Shown: one piece after another, positions 45,564 to 53,015 of the stretch | Layout: each line of letters opens with the position of its first letter | Numbering within the stretch: the first letter of the stretch is position 1 | Source of the DNA: Lophium mytilinum | Taxonomy: Eukaryota | Assembly (NCBI GenBank): GCA_010093605.1 | Contig: MU004191.1 | Span: 852,816-916,815, forward strand | Length of the DNA: 64,000 nucleotides | Reading direction: 5' to 3' | Notes under the pieces: model-generated | The model's input: only the letters and a program-made list of their open reading frames with translations | Database searches by the model: none | Told to the model about the DNA's origin: nothing | Translations under genes and position numbers: made by a program

Positions 45564-47817
45564 GTGGGGGAATGGGTGATGGAGGGGAGGGGATGTTTGA
45601 TGAGCTATGGAATCATGGTTGATGCATTGGGCTCGGCACTAGGCCGCCACATGGAGTAACGGATACCACCTTTCTGATGATGTGTCCTGTGTTGACGGTG
45701 TCTCCTGTTTTGATGATGTTCCGCCGAGCTGTGATGTAAAAACAGGACGCCACGTAGGTTAACAGCGTCTGAGGTGGGCAGAAGGCTCAAGGCTGGTCTA
45801 AAGAATCAAATATAGAGGTAAATACGCGTAGTGCTGGGGTTCTACTCTATTAAAAGTGATTGAACCTTTGACGGGTGAGGTCTTGAATGTCCATGGTGTT
45901 CCTGAGACGTTCCTACATTGTCACGTGAACATAGCCCAGATCAGACTTCCATTTATAGGCACAGATGAACTCATGGAAACGCACTCTGGATTCGACTTCT
46001 AACCTTAGATCAATGTAGTCCTGGGTACGCACTCAGATCCCACTCCTAACTATACGTCACTAGATGTATTCATGGTAGTGGTGTGGGGAGCTGGCCATGG
46101 TGTGGAGACGGACTCGCTGGTGTTGAAGCCAAACAGCCACGACTCAACACGACAACCTGGATAGCGCCAAGCCGTTAGCAGTAATACTGGCTGGCCAACA
46201 TCGTCATTGGCCCGCGTGCAGGCGCCTCCAAAGTCGTGTGTCAGTGATGGCGGAGGAAATTTTCATGCAGGCCATCGCGTCGTGCAGAAACGTGCAGGCA
46301 GCGCATGCGACCAGCTGAATGCGCTCCAATGGCGACGGCCTGGGGGACTCCCACTGCTCCGGGCTGTGATAGGAGGGCGCAACACACGCCGCGTCAAGGC
46401 GAGGGGCTCTCTGGCAGGGCATCCAAAGGCACCAAGGCTATTCGTGATGCGCCAGTGAAGACTGCCCGAGATGGCCCACACCACCACCAGCACCCGCGCC
46501 TCAGAGGCGAGTGCCGGGCCCGTCGCTGCGGCGCTTGGTGCCATAGGTGACGGGCAGGGACGGGCCTGGAGGTCTATGTCTGTATATGTGATGTGTCTGC
46601 TCGATGAGGCCGAAGATCGCGAAGCTTGATTCAGCCGCGGGATTGCGCAAAGGCAGGGCTGGAGCCGGTCCGCGCTGCTATTTGCGGTGGCTCTGAGCGG
46701 GCGTGAGTGGGCATTTGCAGCGGTGCGAACGGCTTCGGCGGGCTCGAAGAACGCAACCACGGCGCTGCCATGGGCGAAATAGGGCCGCGACATCGCCTAG
46801 GCAGCCAGTCAGCACCACGCTTCGGATCTGCTGGGCCTTCAAGATGGCATCCCATCCCCGCCATCCTACCTCTCCTCCTCCTCTCGTCCACCTCGCTCCC
46901 GCATCCTCATCCAACAGCATCTTTCCGTTGCTACTCTCTTCCCTTGCGTGTTGCTGGAGTTTGTGCTTTCCTGACATTCCGGGGTGTTCGTAGGTTTCTG
47001 ATGCATTGCGGCTCTGCTTCGTCATCCTGGTGAGTGACCGAGAAGCCCATTTTTCACCACCAGCCTCACCAGAGCTCGTCCGCCATCGCCGCCGCCTCAC
47101 ACCCTCCGCCGGCCGCTGCGCGCATCGCCCCCTGCTGCTGCCCGTCTCTTGCGACTGTTGCTGCTCGGCCTGGGGCCGTCTTCCCGCTTGCGCGCGCGTT
47201 TGCAGCTCCGCGAGCTGGAGCTTCGCGCTCTCTCGAGCTGTGCGCGCGCACGGCAGGCGTGGGTTCTCTCGCACAAGGCGCCGTGTGGTGTTTGGGAGCG
47301 GCGAGCCTCGTGCTACTGCTGGATGGAGACACGCATGTGATGTACCGCGTGCCACCTACTGACGGCCGTGCAGATTCCGCGACTGGCCTTCTGCATCAAA
47401 CTTCTTCCACCACCACTACTCTCCATTCACTACCGACACCCCCACGGCTGGGCTTCTCTCACAGTGTTAGCTGGGGCATCTTTTTCCATCCATTACTCGG
47501 TTCCTGACGCTTGCCTTCTGCCCTGTGGTCCACGGCGCGTTCTCCGATCCACTTCACCCGTCGTTGCCAATTGCAAGCCGCTCAGCCAGCTTTGCCCGGA
47601 GCAGTCCCGTGACAGCTGTACGTGTCCTCTCTCTCTCTATTGTTCACTATCGAGCCGCGCTATTTCACCGACGCTATTCTGACACTTCCTTGCCGCAGAC
47701 CCGTCGGACATCATTAATTACTTCAACCCCAGTCCTTGACTGCGATTCCTTCTTTGCAACCTCTCTCTTAGCTCACGCTTTCGATCTACGGTTTCGACAA
47801 TCTCACTTGACGCAGTC

Positions 47818-49308
47818 ATGAGTTTCCAGAACTACGATTCCTTCCAGGGCCAACAGCCCACCGAAGAGGGCGGTGCTCCCGGTGGCGCTGGACCCCAGCA
47901 GCAACAACAACAACCCCAAATGGGCCAGCCGATTGAGAACTCTCAGGCCCAATTCCAGGGCGGCAACATGGGTGCGCCAGGATCCGCCGGCGGTGAACAA
48001 TCCGGCGATTCGAAGACGACTCTTTGGTACGTTAAACCTCACTGGGTATTGGCATCATGTCTTGCCGCATAGCTTGAAGGCTGTGGGGGAATATGTCTGG
48101 GATGTAGGCAATAAAATAACAACGAGGGTTAACATACGATTCAGGATGGGCGAATTGGAGCCCTGGATTGACGAGAATTTCGTCCGCAGTATCTGGTTCG
48201 GCATGGGCGAGCAGGTCAACGTGAAGATGATCAGAGACAAGTTCTCCGGGTAAGCGGAACAGAGGCCTATCACTATATTCAAACTAACCACGTCTAGAAG
48301 CAATGCGGGTTATTGCTTCGTCGATTTCCCCAACCCGGCAGCGGCCGCCAAAGCCCTGACTTTGAACGGTCAACTCATCCCAAACTCTAATCGCCCGTTC
48401 AAGCTGAACTGGGCTTCCGGAGGTGGTCTCGCTGACCGAAGGTAAGCTGAATTTGTTTCTTTGTTTTTTATTATCGTTTTGGTTATGCAAGGCCTAATTT
48501 TCTCCGCAGCCGCGACGATCGTGGCCCCGAATTCTCCATCTTCGTGGGGGATCTCGGACCCGAGGTGAACGAATATGTGCTGGTTTCGCTTTTCCAAGGC
48601 AAATTCCCTTCCTGCAAATCTGCAAAGATCATGTCCGATCCAATCAGCGGCCTGTCCCGTGGCTATGGTTTCGTTCGCTTCGCCGACGAAGGCGACCAAC
48701 AACGCGCCCTCACTGAGATGCAGGGTGTGTACTGCGGCAACCGACCTATGCGTATCTCCACTGCAACCCCCAAGAACAAGAGCGGTGGCCCCGGAGGTCC
48801 TCCGGGCGGCATGAACATGCAAGGCGCGGGAGGCCCAGTCGGCATGTACTCTATGGGAGCCCCGCCCATGGGCTACTACGGCGCTCCTCAGCCCATGAAC
48901 CAATTCACCGATCCCAACAACACAACTGTCTTCGTTGGAGGTCTTTCCGGCTACGTCACCGAGGACGAGCTGCGCTCCTTCTTCCAAGGATTCGGCGAGA
49001 TCACCTACGTCAAGATTCCACCCGGCAAGGGCTGCGGCTTCGTGCAGTTCGTACAGCGACACGCTGCCGAGATGGCAATCAACCAGATGCAGGGTTACCC
49101 GATCGGCAACTCGCGGGTTCGTCTCAGCTGGGGACGTAGCCAGAACAACTCCGGCCCGGCAGGAACTCCTTATCGTCCAGCTCCACCTCCTCCAGTCTAC
49201 CCGTCAATGGGCGCCATGCCCAGCCATCCTTTCGGCAATTACGCACCCATGAAGGTCAGTCTCTACAGCCTCTGAAAACCCTTACCCATACTAACCCGCT
49301 CGCAGTAA
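47818..49308 (+). CDS. NAM8: Triple-RRM RNA-binding protein, Nam8/Ngr1/Csx1 family (short isoform ending ...YAPMK*)
   Basis: KTTLWMGELEPWIDE, NAGYCFVDF, FKLNWASG, SIFVGDLGPEV, SRGYGFVRF, RPMRISTATPK, DPNNTTVFVGGL, KIPPGKGCGFVQF, RVRLSWGR. The last intron (49255-49305) is followed directly by TAA. NAM8 versus NGR1 orthology cannot be resolved by eye. Confidence 0.9.
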
Positions 49309-50243
49309 GCAAATCTTTTCCCTCACTTTCACGGCGGCACCGAGCGTCCAAGGTTTCCCAACGGTTGGCTTGCTCAATGATTTCCATATTTATGAATGCC
49401 CACCTCATGACCCCTTTCCCGAATCTGGAGCCCCCTTATCTGTCATTGGGTGGTATTGCTCTCTAAAAGTTGCCATATCATGAATGCTTTCTCCTTCTGC
49501 TTTCCGGGTTGGGTGGCCTAGAGAAAAACTCCTGTGTACAACAGCTCTTGCTTGCTCGGGGTCCCAGATGGAAGGTGCTGCCTTCTCTTTCCTTTCTTTT
49601 TCACATTTGCGACTGGGACGGGGAATGCAGGGTGTCCCCGGTTTTTGTTATTAGCTAGCACCTAGGTTCCACTTCTCCCCTTGAGTTCTAGCTTGAGCGA
49701 GATCGGTGGACAGACAAATCTTTCTTGCTTTGCTACTTGCGATATCTGCTTGCCTTATATTTACCCTCATCTATTCGAACCCCCGGTTGTTTTCGGGGGC
49801 CTTGGAATTGGTCTTTTTTGGGAAAGCATTGGGCGGGTGTGTACAACGACAACTTTAGCGATTGGCGATTTGAGAAACGGGCAGCTTCAGATCTTATCAC
49901 TTTGGGGCCTCTCTTCCATTTCTTCTCAAAACCTCATGCCATTTTGACTATGTTTGGGTGCCATTTACATCATCATCATCATCATCGTCGTCATCTACTC
50001 GCCTTTGCCGTTTTCATCTCGTTTGCCCGCGATTCAAAATCACTTCCGCGAAATCTTCCGTTCGACGTCCCGCCCAAAAATGCGGGATTCATACTTAACT
50101 TTTTCGAAACCTTGGACGCTGCTGGAGGTCATCACCATCTCCAATGCAGTCTGTCAAACAACAGAAAGAGCTGGGATTGCACAACTAACCTCGTTTCTTC
50201 CGGGGAGAGAGAGAGAGTTGGCGCGCTGACATCCATATCACAG
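49254..50243 (+). other. Predicted [D1,2] spliceosomal twin intron (internal intron 49255-49305 nested in the donor of a 939-nt external intron)
   Basis: G49254 | GTCAGT...TACTAAC(49289-95)...CAG(49305) | TAAGC gives a reconstituted GTAAGC donor; distal GCTGAC branch at 50225-30 and CAG acceptor at 50241-43. Confidence 0.72.
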
Positions 50244-50505
50244 CCCTTATAACAACTCGCTTATTCAACCCCCGCCTATGCTCCCCTTCCCGGGCTCGGG
50301 CGCCGGCTTCCCGGGCGGCTCTTTTTCGCCATCAGACTATCCGAAGGACGGCCCCGTGGGACCAGGACCCATGGGCGCGGCGCTTCTCGTGCAGAAGATG
50401 GGCGAGGTCAGCCTCGGCGCAGTGGGGCAGCAACAGCAGCAGCAGCAGCAGACGCGGGCTGAGCCGTCGGCGGCGGGGCAGGGGGCGGGGTTTACGGAGC
50501 AGTAG
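50244..50505 (+). CDS. Alternative terminal exon of the NAM8-like gene (long isoform)
   Basis: After two-step splicing, ATG AA|C CCT TAT AAC... reads MNPYNNSLIQPPPMLPFPGSGAG...QQQQQQQQ...FTEQ*, in frame with ORF 50278-50505; composition matches the Pro/Gly/Gln/Met-rich tails of the protein. Confidence 0.7.
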
Positions 50506-51416
50506 TGAGTTGTTGCCTCCACGCCCCCTCCCTCTTCCTTCACTACACGAAACTCTCTGCTTTGGGAGAGAACTGTGTGCTGACGGGGCGGTGGTAGCTC
50601 GGTGGTGGGTAGAGCAAGACGGAAGTAGTAGAAAAAGGTGGGTGGGCTTTTCTTTCTTGATTGAGGCATGGATGGCGCTAGGGGGGGCAGGGGATGTGGG
50701 TTTAGCATGGCGTCTGGCGTTTCCGACTGATCGGATCGACACATCTGAGAGGTCGCGGGAGGCGGGGCGGCGGCGGCTTTAAAAGCTATCTGGTTTTGGT
50801 TTTCTTTTCTTTTTTTGGGGGGGGGGGAGAGGGGGTAATGGGAGGGGACAGAGAGGGAGGAGTGTAGACATGATAGGAAATTAGCTGAACACTACTTGCT
50901 TGCTGTTGGTAGGGGTGTTGAGACGCAATGTGCGAGGTTGAGTGAGATGATGGGATGGGGTTGGTGGGTTGGGGAGATTAAGACAGTGTGGATCGGAGAA
51001 GTGGATGGATTGATTTTCTAGGTTTGTGGCATTCCTCAGGAGTCCTCGACAGGTTTTAAGTTGCTATGTTGAGATGTCATCTCTGCTAACTACGTGTTGA
51101 ATCGGTGGTAAGCGGAGCTATTTTGTATGGCTCTTGGACATCGTCAGGAGTGGTACAATTGGCCACTGAAGATGGGGATGAGATGTAAGTTCTCCAACAC
51201 GCGCTGCATCGGGTAGCTAATTCCGCAAAACTCACAGCTCCATGGCACCGTCAGGGGCACGCCCATGTGTTCCAAGAAATTGCCCACAGAAGTCTCATTC
51301 GCTGCAATGCAAATGCAATGCTTAACCATCAACTTTGATTGCACCTAGAACGACTCTTAATGATCATATTCATTCTCAGCTCACCTACAACACTCAACAC
51401 CTCCTCTTCCGTCATC

Positions 51417-53015
51417 TCACCCCGACACCGTCTTCGCCGCAACACCACTACTCGCACTCCGAATCTTCGGCTCCAACGGAAACACCTGCTTGTCCGGCGT
51501 AACCCCTTTATACAACTCATCCCAGCGACTCTTCAACGGCTCCGGCGTCTCCCACGCATACTCCGGATCCCTTAGCCACAACCGCACAAGATGGCGCCTG
51601 TCACTCAACTCGTCAGCCTCAATCCAGCACAATCAACTCAACCCCAAAACAGGAAAAAAGAACCTGCCACTCACTGCTGCTCCTCGGAATCCCGAAACCC
51701 ATCGCGCGCGTGAAACGTCGCTAGGTTGTTGATGTACTGCACATCCCCCGGCTGGAAATCCAGCCCCAGCGCAAACCGCTCCGCGAGGAAGTGCACCGCG
51801 TCCAAAGCTTCTGCTTGCGCTTCTGTGATGGGTGGGATCGTTGGTGTGCGTGGGAGTGCTTGGAAGCCTGTGAAGGAGCGCCGCGCGTACTGGATGATGA
51901 TCCGCTCCGGGTCTGTCGTTGTTGCGGGCTGGTGGTACAGCAGCGGACGGGAGGTGTAGGGGCGGTCTGGGCGGCCGAACCTGTTTCCCACAGTCTTCAT
52001 ATCAGCACACTTCCCTAGACTACCTTACTCACGGTCCAATCCAGTTCAGTAGCACAGACACCTCCACCAAGAAACGGAAGAGAAAAAAAAGGGGGAAAAG
52101 CGAAACTCACCCATCCTGCACCCACTCCCCCGCCAACGTCCTCACCAAATCCGGCCTCGTCCGCGCCAGCTCATTATACACCCGCCAGTTACTCGCTACC
52201 CGACTCGTGCCCCCCTCCGCCGCGGCGCTCAGGCACAGCAGCGCGATGACGTCCCCCGCGTCCGTGTGGAAGACTTGCTTGTCGGTCGTGTAGGCGGGCG
52301 CGCCGATGTGCGCGGCGTCGGCGGTGGTGGAGAGGTCTTTGATGTGCGCGAGGACGACGTCGGCGGGGGCCCCGTTGTGTGTTTGGTCCTGGCGGCCGCG
52401 GATGGGCGCGATATGGGAGGAAACGCCGGCGTAGAGGGTGAAATTGTCGGTGCGGGTGTGGGTGGCGACGGGGAGGCCGCGCAGGACGGCGAAGCCGGGG
52501 CCGTGGTGGAGGAGGTGGGAGAGGGTGCGGAGGGGGGCGTGGAGGGTGGGGAGGGGGAAGGTGGTGGGGGAGATGTGGCCTTGGGAGAGGTTGAGGGCTG
52601 GAGAGCGTGAGAAAGGGGGGGTTTGAGTTGGTTGGAGAGGAAAGAATTGGTTGGGAAAGGTTGGTGGGAAGGTTGGAGGGAAGGTTGGAGGGCTCTTTTT
52701 GAAGGAGGAGAACGAGAAAGTCGAGAGAGAGAGAGAGGTTTAGTAGTACTCACATTTGAAATGCTCAAGGGCTGCTTCTATCTCGGCAACCTCCTCTACG
52801 CTTAGCTCATAGACCCAATTATAGCCGGATTCTTTAATGCTGTCCCCATCCCATACAAACTCCGATTCTAATTTCTCTGGAAATCCAGGCGGTAAAGTGT
52901 TCTCCAACTTCTCCGTCGCCAGCCGCCGCTGCGTCCGCGCTTTATACTTGTCGAAATCGGGCGTATATGTAATATCTGGTTGGCCAGGGGGCGCAGATAC
53001 GGAAGCGGCAGCCAT
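51417..53015 (-). CDS. TauD/TfdA-family (clavaminate synthase-like) 2-oxoglutarate/Fe(II) dioxygenase, multi-exon
   Basis: PPGQPDITY N-terminus, PAYTTDKQVFHTDAGD (HxD), FQPGDVQYINNLATFHARDGF (distal His), RHLVRLWLRD. Confidence 0.92.

Follow-up and report, generated by a model that had tools for sequence, protein, structure and literature searches.

The gene for a NAM8-like RNA-binding protein in Lophium mytilinum probably ends in an ancient spliceosomal twin intron (stwintron) of the [D1,2] type, which acts as a stop-or-extend switch and stands, under the conditions sampled, at the stop position. The gene lies on the forward strand of the window, by which we mean the whole 64,000-nucleotide (nt) stretch analysed here (contig MU004191.1 of assembly GCA_010093605.1, positions 852,816 to 916,815). 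In the arrangement that we propose, the donor of an older phase-2 intron, which interrupts a conserved Asn codon, would have taken up a small intron between its G1 and its U2. Excision of this 51-nt insert, a first step that is observed in this organism, joins ..ATG AAG to TAAGC and creates both the stop of a 401-residue protein ending ..A-P-M-K and the donor G|UAAGC. In a second step, G49254 and 49306-50243 would be removed, by which the Lys-stop would become Asn followed by 86 further residues and conserved 3' untranslated region (UTR) blocks would be discarded; in the short form, the 938 nt after the junction would serve as that conserved 3'UTR. The letters of the split donor G|UAA also spell a stop codon, which makes the splicing intermediate itself a finished mRNA. 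On balance, we expect that this organism still makes the long form, a product seen only in its relatives, and that the choice between the two forms may be under regulation.

This nested arrangement had been proposed from the letters of the DNA alone, and all of the elements named in that sequence-only reading were found at the bases given for them. After ATG (49249-49251) and AAG (49252-49254) come a GTCAGT donor at 49255, a TACTAAC branch site and a CAG that ends at 49305. TAAGC follows at 49306, and G49254, the last base of exon 4, can serve either as the third base of the Lys codon or as base 1 of the external intron, in which case it rebuilds a GTAAGC donor with the letters after the junction. 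The same GTAAGC is used as a donor by introns 2 and 3 of this gene. Further downstream, GCTGAC at 50225-50230 and a CAG ending at 50243 provide a branch site and an acceptor whose use would restore the frame of the protein family, AA|C and then Pro-Tyr: the two-step product reads AA|C CCT TAT AAC and is open from C50244 to the TAG at 50503-50505, that is, Asn and 86 codons. A one-step join instead reads AAG|CCC TTA TAA and ends after Lys-Pro-Leu. The geometry fits the published definition of a [D1,2] stwintron, 5'-G1|U2RWGY, and recurs among relatives.

Direct evidence for the first splice came from assembled transcripts. Four of the 11 runs listed were used, X1 (0.85 of sampled words) and X8, X9 and X10 (0.23-0.29), and those with small shares (X2-X7 and X11) were left out. 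All four hold contigs and no raw reads. Contigs lose rare variants, so the absence of a joint from them tells what is present and not what is absent. The contigs skip the four GT..AG stretches listed as introns in Table 1 and thus derive from RNA. The last of these skips, a 51-nt joint at 49252->49304 (GT..AG, cut +2), corresponds to the predicted junction 49254^49306 and occurs in four of four runs. In X1, a single 3,078-nt record with 0 mismatches to the window is unbroken over 49304-50750 and continues for another 66 letters, which identifies the assembled mRNA of the own strain as the short form: a coding sequence of 1,203 nt (401 codons), then TAA and 1.5 kb or more of 3'UTR, in which the 'hidden exon' lies. 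Polyadenylation before 50240, which would speak against the switch, is not what this contig indicates, as it reaches ~50816 and so ends ~300 nt beyond the distal stop and not near the first one. Near this end, at 50796-50840, a stretch of T gives way to one of G (~11 G), and the end may be an assembly break rather than a poly(A) site. Runs X8-X10 come from a relative that is ~96% identical, the contigs of which continue unspliced to 49653-49892; they have no cover over 49893-50527, and nothing is drawn from that stretch.

The encoded protein has three RNA recognition motifs (RRMs) in the order RRM1-RRM2-linker-RRM3. Exon 4 carries two Pfam RRM_1 stretches (E 2.1e-33), RRM1 was read from the translations of exons 2 and 3, and a full-length orthologue, P0159, shows three RRM_1 stretches in Pfam. 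The best solved relative of exon 4 is yeast NAM8 (5zwn_V, E 1.1e-56 over two stretches), followed at a distance by TIA-1 (1e-23) and PUB1 (2.9e-22), in agreement with the NAM8-like identity first suggested. The Protein Data Bank holds no Ngr1, the Nam8 paralogue, so that Nam8 and Ngr1 are not separable by a structure match; two yeast orthologues with the conserved tail described below are named Nam8p by their sources. A phmmer comparison of the conserved fungal tail with the solved Nam8 chain gave no alignment. To our knowledge, yeast NAM8 has no alternative C-terminus. Residues 401-454 of yeast Nam8 are reported as essential and 455-523 as dispensable; next to the 5' splice site, Nam8 is in contact with the RNA of the intron, and TIA-1 binds U-rich sequence there (PMC3082912).

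The junction that the second splice would create is the one at which the family's conserved tail begins. In 26 fetched orthologues, A-P-[LIM]-N-[PS] leads into a tail of which one motif and the end are conserved (..R-L-N-E-L-Y.., ..G-V-Y-A-Q); by source name, the tail-bearing proteins belong to Saccharomycotina, Taphrinomycotina, Orbiliomycetes and Pezizomycetes, with others unnamed. Many other orthologues end ..A-P-M-K or read ..A-P-M-K-V.., which corresponds to AAG and then GT. Given the family junction, the two-step junction of the window, with its AA|C Asn and Pro-Tyr, is exactly that of the family.

To survey the DNA itself, metagenome contigs were scanned with a pattern specific to the orthologue group, which yielded 116 loci, 80 of them with 3-kb flanks. 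Many are near-duplicates, and the 102 loci with an assigned stop reduce to 63 representatives below 85% identity. A junction codon followed by GT or GC was present in 73 loci, the window included. When the internal 3' splice site was predicted by a rule blind to the stop (the first branch-site motif, then the first AG), a stop codon stood directly after it in 67 of the 73 (TAA in 62, TGA in 4 and TAG in 1, this last case, L061, being doubtful), and the letters after the intron were TAAGC in 38, TAAGA in 14 and TAAGG in 2. The remaining six have TAA or TGA after the next AG, as confirmed for one of them, L072, by the 100%-identical mRNA contig L029. Named members with this arrangement fall, by source name, in Dothideomycetes, Eurotiomycetes, Leotiomycetes and Lecanoromycetes, and the rebuilt donor, branch point, acceptor and reading phase of the window are orthologous to an arrangement kept by many Pezizomycotina.

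Several of these loci also preserve the distal exon. A profile of the 26 tails detected it in L014, L021/L068/L078, L026, L048 and L073 (E 1e-16 to 4e-26) and, with weaker scores, in L022 (E 4e-5) and L033 (E 3e-6), in each case 460-1000 nt downstream in a stwintron-bearing locus. Every exon found in this way begins AG|T, followed by Pro/His and then Tyr/His/Asn, and a one-step splice would enter it out of frame. An in-phase AG|Y acceptor was present in every tail-bearing locus examined, in the form AG|Y CCN in 11. Dothideomycete-like loci (L008/L023, L010, L025, L045, L059 and L080) have in-phase distal open reading frames of 56-88 codons, the tails of which differ from the others in being rich in Pro, Gly, Gln and Asn, ending ..A-F-x-Q-Q-L-P and varying greatly. 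The donor covaries with the tail: a rebuilt GTAAG occurs in 12 of 12 non-redundant tail-bearing loci, all of them combining AAG+TAAG with an in-phase AG|Y acceptor, versus 10 of 17 without a recognizable tail, where the other seven read ATAAGC, GTAAAC (twice), GTAAAG, GTAATT, GTGACC and GTGAAC (Fisher one-sided p ~0.012 by our own arithmetic, uncorrected for relatedness).

One relative provides the two-step product itself. P0201 is an uninterrupted 475-residue protein with 14 member sequences, encoded by a 1,904-nt contig, and it can be laid on the genomic locus L025: residues 1-405 match the upstream exons, which are separated by introns in L025, residue 406 is an Asn made of AA + C, and residues 407-475 match the distal frame at 69 of 69 positions. 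At this junction P0201 reads M-M-N-F-N-G, and L025 reads ATG ATG AAG|GTGAGT..96 nt..CAG|TAAGCG....GCTAAT..CAG|C TTC AAC, so only removal of the G and both introns yields the protein. From this match of sequences, the two-step product is present as mRNA in a relative. L016, an intron-free full-length contig, likewise reads ATG AAC CCC TAC. Short-form mRNA contigs are found as well (L028, L029, L034, L038, L050 and L067), with the upstream introns removed, AAG or CAG directly before the stop and another 400-1000 nt after it; L077 keeps even the internal intron. Among the loci, there was no pair of long and short mRNAs from the same species, the only pair, L029/L072, being of the short form.

Comparison with other classes suggests how the structure may have arisen. 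Pezizomycete-like loci lack the internal intron and read AAG TAG TT, a plain donor AA|GTAGTT that splits the same Asn codon, with the acceptor TAG|T CCT CAT 259-762 nt downstream; this fits the annotated Tuber and Morchella proteins, which read A-P-L-N-P-H. The plain phase-2 intron of these loci implies that the internal intron was inserted into the donor of an older intron, and [D1,2] stwintrons can arise from an existing canonical intron (PMC12403724). Sordariomycete proteins (P0225-P0256, by source name) form a separate type that reads ..S-G-V-G-T-P-Y-R.. and either ends ..G-P-Q or reads through as ..G-P-Q-V, which hints at the same intron-before-stop layout with CAG|GT.

Errors are frequent in the public gene models of this locus. 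Some models are fused to the next gene downstream and reach ~1,000-1,200 residues, and others read on in frame through the internal intron before using the contiguous G+TAAGC as a donor; faulty models occur among P0170, P0172, P0177, P0182, P0191, P0209, P0204, P0206, P0163 and P0165. When the C-terminal parts of two fused models were compared with the window by tblastn, there was no match to indicate synteny with the relatives' downstream gene.

In the window, the distal exon shows a coding-like G+C periodicity. Its G+C content by codon position is 0.73/0.53/0.78, compared with 0.60/0.50/0.68 for exon 4, and the preceding 936 nt are flat at 0.44/0.49/0.51 (0.48 overall), with no codon periodicity. 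The acceptor phase and the N-P-Y start are as in relatives, and the branch site and acceptor are canonical. In semi-global alignments against 500 composition-preserving shuffles, the residue order of the distal frame resembled that of the tails of L026 (z 4.7, 0/500), L014 (z 3.4) and L033 (z 3.4). Summed for 11 tails, which are non-independent targets, the result was z 3.9 and p 0.002; four Dothideomycete-type tails showed little or no resemblance (z -0.6 to 1.9). Open and coding-like in its G+C, the distal exon of the window is a diverged positional orthologue of the family tail.

A number of findings nevertheless weigh against a working switch in the window. Some of them concern chance. By our own estimate, an 86-codon open frame would occur at this G+C content with a probability of ~6%, and 83 open reading frames of at least 40 residues lie in 46500-51500, among which one of 197 residues overlaps the same place in another frame; CTRAY+AG sites, like long open frames, are frequent in the window. 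Taken alone, the window therefore makes a weak case beyond chance. Across relatives the case is strong. If this were an ordinary last intron before the stop, with a long 3'UTR that happened to contain a GT-AG pair and an open frame, the geometry would not be expected to recur in 67 of 73 loci, with the acceptor phase and the Pro-Tyr/His start conserved and the mRNA-derived P0201 carrying the two-step junction. We regard such a coincidence as highly improbable, as it is already contradicted by the comparative sequence data.

The other opposing findings concern the second splice and the tail. The short form is the sole assembled transcript of the own strain, and neither junction predicted to reach the distal exon (49253^50244 or, for the one-step splice, 49254^50244) was found when joints to 50244 were looked for in the contigs of X1, X8, X9 and X10 (0 of 4 runs). 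Against 1,628 six-frame open reading frames of the window, the 26-tail profile scored the distal frame at E ~800; hhalign aligned it with nine Dothideomycete-type tails at E 0.36 over only 4 columns; and among 722 longer and 28 near-length candidates from a collection of 5.8 billion proteins, none reached E<=0.01 for the tail. Pfam has no family for the tail or for two overlapping open reading frames. Several lineages have lost the tail or even the intron. In a clade reading ..A-P-R-Q (L003, L009, L012, L024, L046, L055, L074 and L084), the junction is CAG TAA, and both intron and tail are gone, the absence of the intron being evident from genomic contigs (L012, L055 and L074) and from intron-free full-length contigs. 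In L037 and L069 (also L042 and L101), the junction Lys is AAA in place of AAG, which gives ATAAGC, so that no donor can be rebuilt; no tail was found there, and these loci amount to a natural version of a bench mutation. Finally, when the window is compared with its closest relative, conservation behind the stop equals that of coding sequence, which fits a 3'UTR in steady use.

Much of this would follow if the locus were a stwintron by descent only, with an external intron that is no longer spliced, a short protein as its sole product and a distal frame that is a former exon not yet broken. This is the main rival explanation, and we consider it rather unlikely, although it accounts for the retained form in the own-strain assembly and in the contigs of the ~96% identical relative, for a tail that profiles and the protein collection fail to detect, for non-coding blocks conserved directly after the stop and for tail loss elsewhere; also in its favour is the ~6% chance estimated above for an open frame of that length. 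It does not account for splice signals and a phase that are all intact, for the G+C periodicity of the distal exon against the flat stretch before it, or for a residue order resembling that of conserved tails. Moreover, the window keeps AAG+TAAGC as all 12 tail-bearing loci do, when 7 of 17 tail-less loci are without GTAAG, and its transcript ends past the distal stop. As to the interpretation overall, the stwintron geometry, the first splice, the orthology and the two-step mRNA of a relative all bear out what the sequence-only reading had proposed, and its second splice was not seen in this organism's contigs.

The segment retained in the short form appears from its conservation to behave as a functional RNA. 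L090, the closest relative among the loci, extends no further than 239 nt past the junction. Over the 190 nt behind its stop, it shares 78% identity with the window, including long perfect blocks, whereas conservation is absent from the internal intron's body. Among the blocks that the window has in common with Dothideomycete-like loci are a pyrimidine tract, CACGGCG and GGTTGGCTT..CAATGA, and the blocks CACGGCG, GGTTGGCTT..CAATGA and TTATGAATGCC are perfectly conserved just after the stop (window 49306-49480; L090:457-638; L008, L010, L025, L045, L080, L082 and L114). Other lineages carry a GGAGTT-containing motif (for example, TTTAGCGGGAGTTGG) 35-55 nt after the stop, also in the intron-less clade, and in L020 and L025/L045 this motif is found after the distal stop too. 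A search for an RNA gene in the long intron gave no Rfam match with E<=1 in 49200-50900. For a possible hairpin that would mask the rebuilt donor by pairing GUAAGC with a conserved GGCTT[AG]C, RNAalifold on 11 sequences gave no consensus structure (-0.68 kcal/mol, 3 pairs and no compensatory change), the candidate pairs being invariant across the sequences folded.

Such conservation raises the possibility that the second splice serves to exchange 3'UTRs, with effects on mRNA stability, translation or localization, and that the tail is incidental. Blocks conserved across classes in the retained segment and the great variability of Dothideomycete-like tails are in keeping with this, as is the Eurotiomycete-like L110, which reads AAT TAC TAG and continues with a sequence whose counterpart in genomic L020 stands at TTTTTTGTAG|C TAC TAG, 737 nt downstream. 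In L110/L020 the 'tail' thus consists only of Asn-Tyr, and the external intron would be spliced even where it adds only these two residues, if L110 is mRNA; L110 is a 638-nt piece and may instead be DNA of a species that lost the intron. Against this explanation, the strong conservation of the lichen-type and Pezizomycete-type protein tails means that the tail is of importance in those groups at least, and we judge a switch of 3'UTRs alone to be unlikely.

A stop-or-extend switch in this gene invites a further proposal, namely that the protein acts on its own transcript. Self-regulation of the second splice would be a reasonable inference from the identity of the protein and the pyrimidine tract behind the rebuilt donor. 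In its full form, the Nam8-like protein would decide the use of its own rebuilt donor by binding the pyrimidine tract and blocks downstream of it, and so set its C-terminus and the keeping or discarding of ~940 nt of conserved 3'UTR, in a circuit that most filamentous ascomycetes would have inherited from their common ancestor; this we put forward as speculative. Among the 63 representatives, pyrimidines make up a mean share of 0.69 at +6..+30 behind the stop, versus 0.55-0.61 at five other offsets. The tract of the window is unexceptional on its own, as 19% of 25-nt windows in 49306-50243 are equally rich in pyrimidines. Since the clade that lacks the intron has the tract too, its role may be that of an element of the 3'UTR and not of a splice enhancer.

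Table 1 Features of the NAM8-like gene in the window (positions count from the first base of the window)
Feature	Position	Strand	Evidence
Exon 1 of the NAM8-like gene, ATG at 47818	47818..48026	+	Sequence; joint 48025->48144 in 4/4 runs
Intron 1, 118 nt, GTACGT..CAG	48027..48144	+	RNA-contig joint, 4/4 runs
Exon 2, start of RRM1	48145..48249	+	Sequence, open reading frame list, RNA contigs
Intron 2, 48 nt, donor GTAAGC	48250..48297	+	48-nt joint in X1, X8 and X9 (3/4 runs)
Exon 3	48298..48441	+	Sequence, RNA contigs
Intron 3, 68 nt, donor GTAAGC	48442..48509	+	RNA-contig joint, 4/4 runs
Exon 4: RRM2, linker, RRM3, Pro-rich end ..A-P-M-K	48510..49254	+	Translation; Pfam RRM_1
Internal intron, 51 nt, GTCAGT..TACTAAC..CAG	49255..49305	+	Spliced in 4/4 runs; position kept in relatives
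Short-form stop TAA, which the rebuilt donor G|TAAGC has as its bases 2-4	49306..49308	+	Sequence, RNA contigs
Remainder of the putative external intron (939 nt including G49254); first part of the 3'UTR in the assembled mRNA	49306..50243	+	
Conserved non-coding blocks after the stop: pyrimidine tract, CACGGCGG, GGTTGGCTT..CAATGA, TTATGAATGCC, CTCTCTAAAAGTTGCCAT-like block	49306..49480	+	
Candidate external-intron branch site GCTGAC, 14 nt before the acceptor G	50225..50230	+	Sequence; distal exons of relatives with equal layout
Predicted distal exon: C50244 completes the Asn codon, 86 codons, TAG 50503-50505	50244..50505	+	Translation of the open reading frame
3'UTR common to both forms, after the distal stop	50506..50816	+	X1 record: 66 letters past 50750

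Some smaller features of the contigs and of the gene were also noted. X10 reads intron 2 as 51 nt (48248->48300) rather than 48, and one of its contigs, at a low depth of 3.5, skips 87 nt at 48780-48868 in the Gly/Pro-rich linker, with AG..CC ends; both are probably length variants of the related organism and not splicing. Two triplet repeats were skipped as such in the contig alignment, (CAT)n(CGT)n at 49958-50001, within the external intron, and (CAG)n at 50421-50461, which is the Gln run coded by the distal exon. After the distal frame, the window has the tandem stops TAG TGA (50497-50508), and the relative in X8 reads CAG TGA, by which its distal frame would gain one Gln (a loose end at 50528 with ~30 letters visible).

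Stwintrons have for the most part been viewed as an oddity of intron evolution, with intermediates regarded as short-lived and a missplice as an error. Here, one conserved structure would give rise to two proteins and two 3'UTRs, in the orthologue of a factor that aids 5' splice site choice by U1, a small nuclear ribonucleoprotein (snRNP), so that a feedback loop could be put to a direct test. The structure appears, from its distribution, to be among the oldest stwintrons, common to several classes and derived from a plain intron kept in Pezizomycete-like genomes. It offers a dated example of stwintron origin and also of decay, through loss of the tail, loss of the donor by AAG->AAA and loss of the whole intron, and it has a practical side in the many incorrect public gene models.

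Term searches (not every term in each paper) of the main text of the stwintron papers PMC5639578, PMC9024468, PMC12403724, PMC6616335, PMC8469720, PMC5587772 and PMC7138796 and of one supplement of PMC9024468 gave no mention of this gene; the 2013 and 2015 subscription papers of the same group were outside their scope. Literature searches that combined Nam8 with Pezizomycotina, intron retention, autoregulation or fungi returned nothing relevant among the listed results. As [D1,2] stwintrons are already well described, what appears to be new is an intermediate that is a finished mRNA, with a split donor that doubles as a stop codon, in the gene of a 5' splice site factor.

Recursive splicing in animals takes out a long intron stepwise from 5' to 3', at ratchet points with AG|GTAAGT sites. 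As in that process, the second 5' splice site here exists only after the preceding splice, but the small intron nested in the donor leaves first, and the intermediate encodes a finished protein. With Saccharomyces cerevisiae Nam8, which belongs to the U1 snRNP, and human TIA-1, the protein has three RRMs in common. Among stwintrons, that of rtnA in Aspergillus and other Pezizomycotina is similarly old, kept across classes and subject to alternative splicing; as described in PMC6616335, it is of the [D5,6] type, lies in the N-terminal coding region and gives rise to exon skipping through alternative 3' sites, with no stop created. The closest likeness is to the [D1,2] stwintrons of Pezizomycotina, for example those of Hypoxylaceae, described by Flipphi, Fekete, Karaffa and co-workers (PMC9024468, PMC12403724), in which an internal U2 intron separates G1 from U2 in the external donor (5'-G1|U2RWGY; PMC9024468) and excision proceeds from the inside out. 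A +1 missplice is described for them (PMC9024468), and here too a one-step missplice would leave one G and shift the frame, to Lys-Pro-Leu-stop. The structure reported here differs from the [D1,2] stwintrons set out in the passages cited in that its external intron is long (460-1000 nt) and contains conserved blocks, in that the arrangement occurs in several classes, and in that its split donor is also a stop codon, which makes the intermediate a complete, translatable mRNA, the form that was assembled in this organism and that several metatranscriptome contigs represent.

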